Assembly (NCBI RefSeq): GCF_058153355.1
Contig: NZ_CM177019.1
Direction: 5' to 3' (one strand)
DNA length: 64,000 bases
The notes under the pieces were generated by a model that did not search any database, was not told where the DNA came from, and worked only from the letters and a program-made list of their open reading frames with translations. Numbering within the stretch: position 1 is the first letter of the stretch; every line of letters starts with the position of its first letter. Of this stretch, positions 16,477 through 46,550 are shown piece by piece. The position numbers were made by a program, and so were the translations under genes.

Positions 16477-16810
16477 AAAAGTTTGATGCTCAAAGAATTA
16501 AACTTCGTAATGAATTACGTGTTCACTCTTGAGACTTGGTATTCATTTTTCGTCTTGCGACGTTAAGAATCCGTATCTTCGAGTGCCCACACAGATTGTC
16601 TGATAAATTGTTAAAGAGCAGTTGCGACGCGGCTTTCAGCTCACTGTCGCGAGGTGGCGTATATTACGCTTTCCTCTTTCAGAGTCAACCCTGAATTTCA
16701 GGATTTTTTCTCTTCAACCGAACCGGCTGTTTGTGTGAAGTGATTCACATCCGCCGTGTCGATGGAGGCGCATTATAGGGAGTTCTCCGCAGGCCGCAAT
16801 AGAAAAATTG
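16477..16810 (-). promoter_or_regulatory. rrnE P1/P2 promoter and leader region
   Basis: Minus-strand TTGCGG...TATAAT (P1, -10 at ~16772-16777) and TTGACT...TAATATAC (P2, -35 at 16683-16688) upstream of the 16S 5' end. Confidence 0.6.
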
Positions 16811-16968
16811 CAGAAAAATGACTGACTGCTGCATTCCCCAGCAAAACCCCGCTTTATACCTTTTTACGCACAGAGTTATCCACAATCATCAATGTAATTT
16901 CTGTATTTTTCCCACGGTAACCACAGTCAAAATTGTGATCGCTATTGAAAGAGAAAAATTCGCGAGCG

Positions 16969-16986
16969 TTGCGCAAACGTTTTCGT
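16969..16986 (+). promoter_or_regulatory. PurR operator (pur box) upstream of purH
   Basis: ttgcgcaaacgttttcgt matches the pur box consensus aCGCAAACGTTTtCnT. Confidence 0.6.
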
Positions 16987-17093
16987 TACAATGCGGGCGA
17001 AAAATAAGGATGCCCCGTTAGGGGCGTTAGCTGAGTTTTTCGCGAAAAATTCAGCTAACGCTCTCTGTAATAGTCAAATCCAGGGGATTTACC

Positions 17094-18683
17094 ATGCAAC
17101 AACGTCGTCCAGTCCGCCGCGCTCTGCTCAGTGTTTCTGACAAAGCCGGTATCGTCGAATTCGCCCAGGCACTTTCCGCACGCGGTGTGGAGCTGCTGTC
17201 TACAGGGGGCACTGCCCGTCTGTTAGCAGAAAAGGGTCTGCCGGTAACCGAAGTTTCCGATTACACCGGTTTCCCGGAGATGATGGATGGACGCGTGAAG
17301 ACCCTGCATCCGAAAGTGCATGGTGGCATTCTGGGCCGTCGCGGCCAGGACGATGCCGTTATGGAAGAACATCAGATCCAACCTATCGATATGGTAGTTG
17401 TTAACCTCTATCCGTTCGCCCAGACCGTTGCCCGTGAAGGCTGCTCGCTGGAAGATGCGGTTGAGAACATCGATATCGGTGGTCCAACGATGGTGCGCTC
17501 CGCCGCCAAGAACCATAAAGATGTCGCAATCGTGGTGAAGAGCAGCGACTACGACGCCATTATTAAAGAGATGGATGCCAACGAAGGATCGCTGACGCTT
17601 GCAACCCGTTTCGATCTCGCTATCAAAGCCTTCGAACATACCGCCGCCTACGACAGCATGATTGCCAACTACTTCGGCAGCATGGTTCCGGCTTATCACG
17701 GTGAAAGCAAAGAGGCCGCTGGTCGCTTCCCGCGTACACTGAACCTGAACTTCATTAAGAAGCAGGATATGCGCTACGGCGAGAACAGCCACCAGCAGGC
17801 TGCCTTCTATATAGAAGAGAATGTGAAAGAAGCCTCCGTTGCCACCGCAACCCAGGTTCAGGGTAAAGCCCTCTCTTATAACAACATCGCCGATACCGAT
17901 GCGGCTCTGGAGTGCGTGAAAGAGTTCGCCGAGCCGGCATGTGTGATTGTGAAGCACGCCAACCCTTGCGGTGTGGCTATCGGCAATTCCATTCTTGATG
18001 CTTACGATCGCGCGTATAAAACCGACCCCACCTCGGCGTTCGGCGGCATTATCGCCTTTAACCGCGAGCTGGATGCTGAAACCGCACAGGCCATCATTTC
18101 TCGTCAGTTTGTCGAAGTGATTATTGCACCGTCCGCCAGCGAAGAAGCCCTGAAAATCACAGCCGCCAAACAGAACGTGCGTGTCCTGACCTGCGGTCAG
18201 TGGGCCGAGCGTGTTCCAGGCCTTGATTTCAAACGCGTGAACGGCGGTCTGCTGGTTCAGGATCGTGACCTGGGGATGGTTGGTGCAGAAGAACTGCGCG
18301 TCGTCACCAAACGTCAGCCGACCGAACAGGAGCTGCGTGATGCGCTATTCTGCTGGAAAGTGGCGAAGTTCGTGAAATCCAACGCTATCGTCTATGCCAA
18401 AGGCAATATGACCATCGGGATTGGCGCAGGCCAGATGAGCCGCGTGTACTCCGCGAAAATCGCCGGTATTAAAGCCGCCGATGAAGGCCTGGAAGTGAAA
18501 GGTTCGTCAATGGCTTCTGACGCGTTCTTCCCGTTCCGCGACGGTATTGATGCCGCGGCCGCTGCGGGCGTGACCTGCGTAATCCAGCCTGGCGGTTCTA
18601 TCCGTGATGACGAAGTGATTGCCGCCGCCGACGAGCACGGTATTGCGATGCTCTTCACCGACATGCGCCACTTCCGCCATTAA
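17094..18683 (+). CDS. purH: bifunctional AICAR transformylase / IMP cyclohydrolase PurH (529 aa)
   Basis: ORF 17094..18683; product [25 protein letters not shown]... recognised as PurH. Confidence 0.95.
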
Positions 18684-46321: not shown

Positions 46322-46492
46322 AAACCAACCTGTCAGAAGTATTCTACAAACATTTTCACCCCGCGATCGCGAGGCAAACCAAATCGAAACGCGTATTAGC
46401 TTTTCGGATTATACGCCCTCAACAGAGCCTGTCTCAGCAATGATTATGACAAAGAAAATCACTGATGAGCCAGGTTCTGGTACGAAAGCGTG

Positions 46493-46521
46493 CAAAAAGG
46501 GCATCAAATGATGCCCTTTTA
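46493..46521 (-). terminator. tufB terminator
   Basis: aaaaagggcatcaaatgatgccctttt hairpin flanked by A/T runs, ~30 nt after tufB stop. Confidence 0.6.
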
Positions 46522-46550
46522 GTGCGCATTGCGTCAAATGTTATCGGCAA

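Follow-up and report, generated by a model that had tools for sequence, protein, structure and literature searches.

A near-perfect palindrome lies between the PurR-controlled promoter of purHD and the purH start codon, and it raises the question of whether this sequence is a binding site for a dimeric protein on the DNA or the image of a stable stem in the mRNA leader, both of which had been envisaged in a preliminary description of the locus. The question is of some weight because purHD is a textbook PurR-regulon operon in the best-studied bacterium. The window (the whole stretch of 64,000 nucleotides that was analysed) is an E. coli-type chromosome: in 5418 complete E. coli genomes the 601 bases round the palindrome are matched across 80% or more of their length, in every case with at least 95% identity and under purH. 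The leader is identical to that of K-12 MG1655, in which the palindrome occupies NC_000913.3 4207565..4207602 on the complementary strand. The features of the leader and its surroundings are collected in Table 1.

Table 1. Features of the purHD promoter and leader, with positions in the window.
Feature	Position	Strand	Basis
PurR operator of the purHD promoter, gcgcaaacgttttcgt, 16 nt	16971..16986	+	published site and fixed position across species
Putative -10 hexamer, TACAAT	16987..16992	+	TA(C/A/G)AAT directly 3' of the PurR box in every locus
Unpaired A-rich 5' segment with AAGGAUG (GGA 17008-17010)	17000..17011	+	sequence
P1, 5-bp GC hairpin GCCCC-guua-GGGGC, sharing the first two nt of P2	17012..17025	+	-10.0 kcal/mol fold; RNAalifold
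GGG, 3' strand of P1, able to pair instead with UCU 17062-17064	17021..17023	+	minimum-free-energy fold
P2, the palindrome: 17-bp stem 17024-17040 with 17045-17061, 4-nt loop cgcg	17024..17061	+	fold, inverted-repeat search
UCU, then pyrimidine/U-rich tract (ucucuguaau)	17062..17071	+	alignment columns
Local hairpin aaaucc-agg-ggauuu round the Shine-Dalgarno sequence (agggga 17082-17087)	17076..17090	+	folding
purH coding sequence, 529 aa, followed by purD	17094..18683	+	ORF and RefSeq annotation of matching E. coli records

The PurR box had been rightly placed upstream of the palindrome, and its limits, first given as 16969..16986, are corrected here to those of a 16-nt box. The reverse complement of this box, ACGAAAACGTTTGCGC, is the PurR site given for purH-purD in PMC3159470, and the box occupies a fixed position in 41 of the 44 Enterobacterales loci. 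Because a conserved -10 hexamer adjoins it, transcription of purHD would be expected to start at 16999/17000, 7 nt past TACAAT, equivalent to position 4207627 of NC_000913.3; purH did not appear among the listed supplementary entries of start-site and 3'-end studies. Given this start, the palindrome would lie in the mRNA leader, at about +26 to +63 of 95 nt, upstream of the purH ATG at 17094, from which the 529-aa ORF runs.

The palindrome, gcgttagctgagtttttcgcgaaaaattcagctaacgc, is 38 bp long and is found exactly where it was first described. In an inverted-repeat search it is composed of two arms of 19 nt each (17024-17042 and 17043-17061), 95% complementary and with zero spacer; the sole mismatch, G17035 against T17050, would be a G.U wobble in RNA of the + strand and an A.C mismatch on the - strand. 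It ranks first of all close-spaced inverted repeats in the window, where gcgttagctgagtttttcgcgaaaaattcagctaacgc and its reverse complement match one place only (0 of 100 shuffles matched), and by our own calculation about 7e-5 palindromes with 19-nt arms, at most one mismatch and a spacer of at most 4 nt are expected per random 64-kb sequence. Folding of the leader RNA, which the preliminary description had proposed as a check, gives a stable structure of -39.7 kcal/mol (z = -5.3 versus dinucleotide shuffles), in which the palindrome forms the hairpin P2, with five U-A pairs in the upper stem and a CGCG loop at its centre in E. coli. A small hairpin just before the palindrome, ccccgttagggg, was also correctly recognised, with coordinates that shift from 17012..17023 to 17013..17024; together with the closing pair G17012-C17025 it constitutes P1, and it overlaps the palindrome by two nucleotides. 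The second-best close inverted repeat of the window, at 46485..46530, has 22-nt arms with 82% complementarity (AAAGCGTGCAAAAAGGGCATCA / TGATGCCCTTTTAGTGCGCATT).

A protein-anchored scan for purH with one genome per species (80 loci) revealed a common leader plan in 36 of 43 Enterobacterales loci, belonging to the Enterobacteriaceae, Erwiniaceae, Yersiniaceae and Pectobacteriaceae (Escherichia, Citrobacter, Kluyvera, Enterobacter, Cedecea, Pluralibacter, Phytobacter, Mangrovibacter, Pantoea, Erwinia, Brenneria, Serratia, Yersinia and Rahnella). From 5' to 3', the plan consists of the PurR box, TAnAAT, about 12 unpaired nt, P1, P2 directly adjoining it, UCU and a pyrimidine-rich tract, with the Shine-Dalgarno sequence and ATG 29-51 nt farther downstream. 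The inverted repeat is thus kept in 36 species, as the base of P2. This base is near constant (GCGUUAnCUGA paired with UnAnnUAACGC, flanked by GGG and UCU; GCGUUAGCUGA / UCAGCUAACGC in E. coli), and the apex above it differs in sequence and length while always remaining self-complementary, so that the gap between the arms ranges from 16 nt in E. coli to 80 nt in Rahnella and the total length of P2 from 38 to 102 nt. The 16-nt centre, described at first as almost palindromic, is indeed so in E. coli and is not in Citrobacter, Kluyvera and Enterobacter, in which the loop differs. Similarly, the stem of P1 is kept while its loop varies in sequence and length (CCUC/GAGG, CCCG/CGGG and CCCCG/CGGGG among species). 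A GGA-containing motif is found by inspection in the 5' segment of most, not all, of the 36 species, and P2 starts 23-28 nt past the predicted transcription start in 30 of them. Yersinia nurmii and Y. thracica carry about 120-130 extra nt between promoter and P1, which places P2 148-158 nt from the start versus the usual distance of about 25.

Several properties of these leaders point to selection for pairing in RNA of the sense strand. In a trimmed alignment of the two 17-nt strands of P2, 87.8% of the cells are standard pairs versus 31-43% when the partners are slid by 1-3 columns, and compensatory changes, with both sides changed, occur in 12 of the 17 pairs; the observed values were reached by none of 500 shuffles. 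For example, pair 7 (G17030-C17055) is G-C in 17, C-G in 6, U-A in 3 and U-G in 2 distinct sequences, and pair 12 (G17035.U17050) is G.U, A-U or G-C and never A.C. P1 and the base of P2 are also found by RNAalifold in a MAFFT alignment made without guidance, with 11 of 15 pairs changed on both sides. With respect to the strand, cells with G.U number 33 versus 13 with A.C, and for 49 of the 66 distinct P2 sequences the sense strand has a lower folding energy than the antisense strand; the mean difference between the strands is 2.2 kcal/mol (Wilcoxon p = 4e-4, uncorrected for phylogeny, the sequences being non-independent). With a covariance model derived from the alignment, the + strand reaches 74.7 bits and the - strand 26.4 bits. 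Because of these strand asymmetries, the variable spacing of the arms and the conservation of stems with variable loops, P1/P2 is, as judged by comparison of genomes, strongly supported as a conserved cis-acting RNA structure, which, given the predicted start, would be a structured 5' UTR element. Of the two original proposals, it is therefore the stable RNA stem in the purH leader whose structural part is strongly supported, by the compensatory changes, the excess of G.U over A.C and the folding of the sense strand; an effect of the stem on translation or stability, also proposed there, is a candidate function.

The other proposal, a dimeric protein-binding site on the DNA, did not stand, since the arm gap varies among genera, the centre is non-palindromic elsewhere and the arms are conserved asymmetrically. 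A simple dimeric operator of the LacI/PurR type is ruled out by the variable spacing of its would-be half-sites, and the true PurR operator is the separate box at 16971-16986. A broader version of the same idea places the function of the palindrome in the DNA itself, as the operator of a dimeric factor or as a cruciform sensitive to supercoiling from the divergent rrnE promoters. It would suit a near-perfect palindrome without spacer in E. coli and a left arm at a fixed distance from the promoter, and further regulators of purHD have been described, with RbsR reported as a repressor and PhoP listed as an activator. In addition, most draft genomes have a contig end a short way upstream of purH, which suggests that adjacency of purH to rrn operons is widespread. 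However, arms spaced 16 to 80 bp apart, a centre that is palindromic only in Escherichia and close kin, mismatches of the G.T type on the sense strand, the favoured stability of that strand and the retention of P1 stems with variable loops all speak against it, and contigs of Photorhabdus (L042), Rosenbergiella, Budvicia and Edwardsiella also break near purH yet carry no hairpin. Moreover, mismatched, long-looped palindromes would not extrude readily as cruciforms. We regard a DNA-level element as highly improbable.

If the element is an RNA, the next question is what selection preserves in it. The 28 nt composed of GGG, the two arms and UCU are 82-97% identical between genera and families, compared with 45-57% at 4-fold degenerate positions of purH codons 1-200 in the same comparisons. 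Among 5419 E. coli genomes, 5381 match the 65 nt 17008..17072 with at least 99% identity. GGG is at least 90% conserved and UCU (alignment columns T39 C40 T41) is invariant in all 36 species. From this conservation we take the P1/P2 leader to be a real, strongly selected RNA structure, and the selection on it would match that seen for many named RNA families. The two arms are unequally conserved: CUGA in the left arm is near invariant even when its partner is mismatched, as is the case for C8 (facing C or U) in 14 of 27 distinct sequences and for G10 in 7 of 27, the latter facing G in Erwiniaceae. A plain helix would be expected to drift, and the constancy of CUGA therefore suggests recognition of specific nucleotides or constraints from alternative or three-way pairing. 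The alternative pairing of GGG, with either CCC of P1 or UCU, may be such a constraint; the predicted folds are suggestive only in this respect. A K-turn, prompted by the C/D-box-like CUGA/UGAUG of Erwiniaceae, was rejected, E. coli being fully Watson-Crick there.

The explanation that we favour, tentatively and at somewhat less than an even chance, is that the palindrome is the DNA image of P2 and that the P1/P2 leader element is recognised at the base of the helix by a trans-acting factor. P1 and P2 would form one RNA element that starts about 14 nt past the PurR-controlled start, and selection would act on the sense-strand RNA. The functional part would comprise the P1/P2 junction, the lower 11 bp of P2 and the GGG/UCU flanks, with the apex as a free spacer that needs only to stay paired. 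Acting after initiation on this promoter-proximal helix of two or more turns, a factor bound at the conserved base or at the P1/P2 junction would determine how purHD mRNA is processed, how long it lives or how it is translated, without dependence on PurR. P1 and the GGG.UCU extension of P2 exclude each other, and the junction might therefore have two states. The comparison of genomes shows the structure, its conservation, its strand and its confinement to purH, whereas the transcription start, the factor and any effect on expression belong to the inferred part of this explanation. The named candidate factor is the double-strand-specific RNase III, which may be considered because the E. coli helix reaches 20 bp when it is lengthened by GGG.UCU pairing, as in the minimum-free-energy fold. 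This length (17 bp plus the 3-bp extension) lies within the RNase III substrate range of about 20 bp or more, according to the rules in PMC6212723. The main text of that paper makes no mention of purH, and the one site that the main text of an RNase III map (PMC5371410) gives for the purH-rrsE spacer is rrsE-related, with none in the purH leader. In Erwiniaceae, the lower helix is broken by two mismatches and is a poorer continuous double strand.

A rival reading is a passive role, in which P1 and P2 fold away a C-rich/CU-rich leader and keep translation initiation constant, by preventing the leader from pairing with the Shine-Dalgarno sequence or from offering Rho an unstructured loading site. 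When P1 and P2 are removed in silico, the Shine-Dalgarno sequence of many Enterobacteriaceae has a lower predicted probability of being unpaired (0.21 instead of 0.44 in one case); however, the effect is small and has the opposite direction in several species. A freely varying apex that stays paired would also be expected of such a module, as would the unrelated long hairpins of Vibrionaceae purH leaders. By contrast, drift would be expected at the base as well, and there the 28 nt are held across families and CUGA is kept when unpaired. A passive module is thus unlikely in our estimation, although conservation of the stem could also arise from slow turnover combined with pairing constraints, without any trans-acting factor. 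Together with weak attenuation or pausing, it is the main rival of the favoured explanation.

The tract downstream of P2 would admit a role in transcription instead of the recognition by a trans-acting factor favoured above. P2 and the pyrimidine/U-rich tract might constitute a weak intrinsic terminator or a hairpin-stabilised pause, with P1 competing against the two basal pairs and against GGG.UCU pairing and so tuning read-through into purH. The GCG/CGC base, the UCU and U-rich run that always follow it (ucuuauuuauuu in Pantoea, ucuuuuauug in Serratia) and the overlapping bases of P1 and P2 are consistent with such an attenuator; the U content of the tract is higher in genera other than that of E. 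coli, and the tract always begins with UCU. Imprecisely terminating E. coli leaders are known, an example being GraL of greA (PMC2836576), which is alike in combining a promoter-proximal stable hairpin with a U-containing tract. The purHD tract differs from this type in being too U-poor for a consensus scan, in which no + strand terminator was detected at P2 (tail ucucuguaau, with 4 U in the 8 nt ucucugua), and in its invariant C residues within UCU, where a terminator favours U; a canonical intrinsic terminator was rejected on these grounds. Furthermore, a stem that reaches 102 nt would be unusual in a terminator, and neither a leader peptide nor any other sensor can be recognised. Among the supplementary entries listed for an E. 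coli Term-seq 3'-end map (PMC7815308), a listing that may be incomplete, purH has no 3' end, which is weak evidence; purH is repressed in rich medium. Taken together, these points make attenuation unlikely. An upstream ORF, AUG-CCC-CGU-UAG, was also discarded, because its Shine-Dalgarno-like AAGGA directly abuts the AUG and about half of the species have no AUG before P1. In the minus-strand reading, P1 (17012..17025) with auccuuauuu behind it was flagged as terminator-like; the U-run is missing in Pantoea and Yersinia, and this resemblance is probably incidental.

The two helices that GGG can form raise a further possibility at the level of translation. The P1 state and the GGG.UCU state lie within about 3 kcal/mol of each other in most species. 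In a translational switch, GGG.UCU pairing would free CCCC of P1 for the GGGG of the Shine-Dalgarno sequence, and the CUCU flank would pair with it instead when P1 is formed. One E. coli minimum-free-energy fold does pair CCCC 17013-17016 with GGGG 17083-17086, CCC, GGG and UCU are all conserved, and the junction states are close in energy. However, near-equal energies are to be expected of overlapping helices anyway and prove no switch, and any C-rich stem would show such complementarity. Over the Boltzmann ensemble, the Shine-Dalgarno sequence finds its partners mainly nearby, and in a minority of species in the 5' strand of P1 or the 3' flank; its main predicted partner is the local hairpin at 17076..17090, which is kept in Enterobacteriaceae only, other families carrying ccaaagccaagggauaaaacc there. 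CCCC or CUCU as an anti-Shine-Dalgarno sequence accordingly had no consistent ensemble support, and the 5' segment showed no above-chance long-range pairing with the initiation region or early codons (z about 0). A switch of this kind is quite improbable. Pairing of GCGAAAAA (16997-17004) with UUUUUCGC (17036-17043) was likewise dismissed, as it is not conserved in other species.

The purH hairpin has parallels among known leaders. The RNase III-processed leader hairpins of E. coli pnp and rnc are alike in consisting of a long near-perfect helix of about two turns in the 5' UTR, located upstream of the ribosome binding site without overlap and conserved in sequence among enterics; the purH hairpin differs in being absent from the sites named in the two RNase III main texts cited above and in having a lower helix that is mismatched in several families. 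In E. coli and Salmonella, pyrC and pyrD possess leader hairpins that control translation through start-site switching, and as at purH, the gene serves nucleotide biosynthesis, has a PurR box and carries near its promoter a hairpin whose distance from the start is fixed. The pyrC/pyrD hairpin includes the 5' end and the Shine-Dalgarno sequence, whereas the structure at purH begins at about +14 and stops 21 nt short of the Shine-Dalgarno sequence. PurH must clear AICAR that arises from histidine synthesis even under purine repression of the pathway, and a second, post-transcriptional layer of control would therefore be physiologically sensible.

In many other bacteria, purH and folate genes are controlled by the ZTP (pfl) riboswitch (PMC10912719), which is likewise a cis-acting structured leader before purH; P1/P2 would occupy the same niche, control of purH beyond the purine repressor. 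It is tempting to speculate that P1/P2 is a riboregulator so far undescribed, which in E. coli and other Enterobacterales would take the place that the ZTP riboswitch has elsewhere and control purHD in response to a protein, or to a small molecule linked to AICAR/ZMP, folate or purine status, with the invariant helix base and GGG/UCU as the sensor and the variable apex as a spacer; we consider this rather improbable. By contrast with the ZTP riboswitch, the purHD leader has no pseudoknot and no conserved unpaired nucleotides, and the E. coli helix is fully paired with no obvious ligand pocket. If the element is regulatory, it would be a missing control point in the cross-talk of purine, folate and histidine metabolism; should the helix do no more than stabilise or insulate, it would be an ordinary leader feature, well delimited for promoter and UTR engineering.

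The distribution of the element indicates that it belongs to purH. In E. coli the palindrome is single-copy, with one locus per genome (the two strands of one palindrome) and one match in the window. In a metagenome scan for the two arms with a gap of 20-50 nt, by which the E. coli type is excluded, 41 of 47 loci were purH leaders of the same architecture, with the 3' end of the PurR box 37-42 nt upstream of the match and the start of MQQ(R/P)RP...LLSVSDK 32-61 nt downstream in 40 of the 41; in the remaining one (L123) it was recognised by eye. The other six loci lack both a PurR box and purH, have poor or coding-like hairpins and are about as many as chance would give. The motif is thus purH-specific, with no regulon signal, and a repeat or mobile element (REP, ERIC, MITE-like) was rejected on account of this specificity and the single copy. 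The examined purH loci of Morganellaceae, Budvicia, Edwardsiella, Rosenbergiella, Vibrionaceae, Aeromonas and Pasteurellaceae lack the motif.

A cmscan of 16600-17400 against Rfam 15 at E <= 10 gave no family match, with the ZTP and purine riboswitches and the enterobacterial sRNA families included; the hairpin itself had a chance-level match to mir-725 (23.8 bits versus a gathering score of 76). A structure conserved in at least four families of Enterobacterales is therefore absent from Rfam, and the purH leader is discussed in no paper that we found in the searchable literature. The P1/P2 element is uncatalogued, and it belongs to the familiar class of structured 5' leaders. The purHD sequence papers of 1989-1990 reportedly pointed out dyad symmetries in this leader; in that case the palindrome had been seen before, without a function assigned.

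Other purH leaders have features of their own. In Vibrio, Aliivibrio, Grimontia, Oceanisphaera and Photobacterium, a different long hairpin lies between the PurR box and purH, and the Vibrionaceae-type hairpin has its own conserved base, GGGUAUUUCCCAAAAC... / ...GUUUUGGCAAAUAUCC, with a variable apex (L039, L043, L047, L048, L057 and L061). A long leader hairpin at purH may thus be a wider gammaproteobacterial habit. Pasteurellaceae purH leaders are short and unstructured, and that of Photorhabdus caribbeanensis (L037) contains what we take to be an ERIC-type repeat.

Several short motifs in and near the E. coli leader were also noted. AAGGAUG at 17006..17012 resembles the CsrA SELEX consensus RUACARGGAUGU, a second GGA is located in the Shine-Dalgarno hairpin (17082..17090), and folding of P2 would juxtapose both; no CsrA data on purH were found in the literature searched. 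The purH codons CAACAAC (17097..17103) are complementary to what we take to be the GUUGUUG repeats of the GcvB seed, and CUCUGUA (17063..17069) in the leader is complementary to UACAGAG, presumably of Spot 42; both matches are short and could easily be due to chance. Upstream of the promoter, a perfect DnaA box, TTATCCACA, is present at 16876..16884 (+) and recurs in 42 of the 44 Enterobacterales loci, on the same strand throughout. It starts 41-43 nt before the core of the PurR box in most genera, at about -70 from the predicted start, and 96-106 nt before it in Escherichia, Citrobacter and Kluyvera. The regulator table consulted gives DnaA for guaBA and not for purHD. Farther upstream, the rrnE leader preceding the divergent 16S gene (16600..16832, - strand) matches Rfam Ysr197 with 102.9 bits versus a gathering score of 167, the match being cut at the edge of the scanned region; Ysr197 looks like a family derived from rrn leaders rather than a separate gene.
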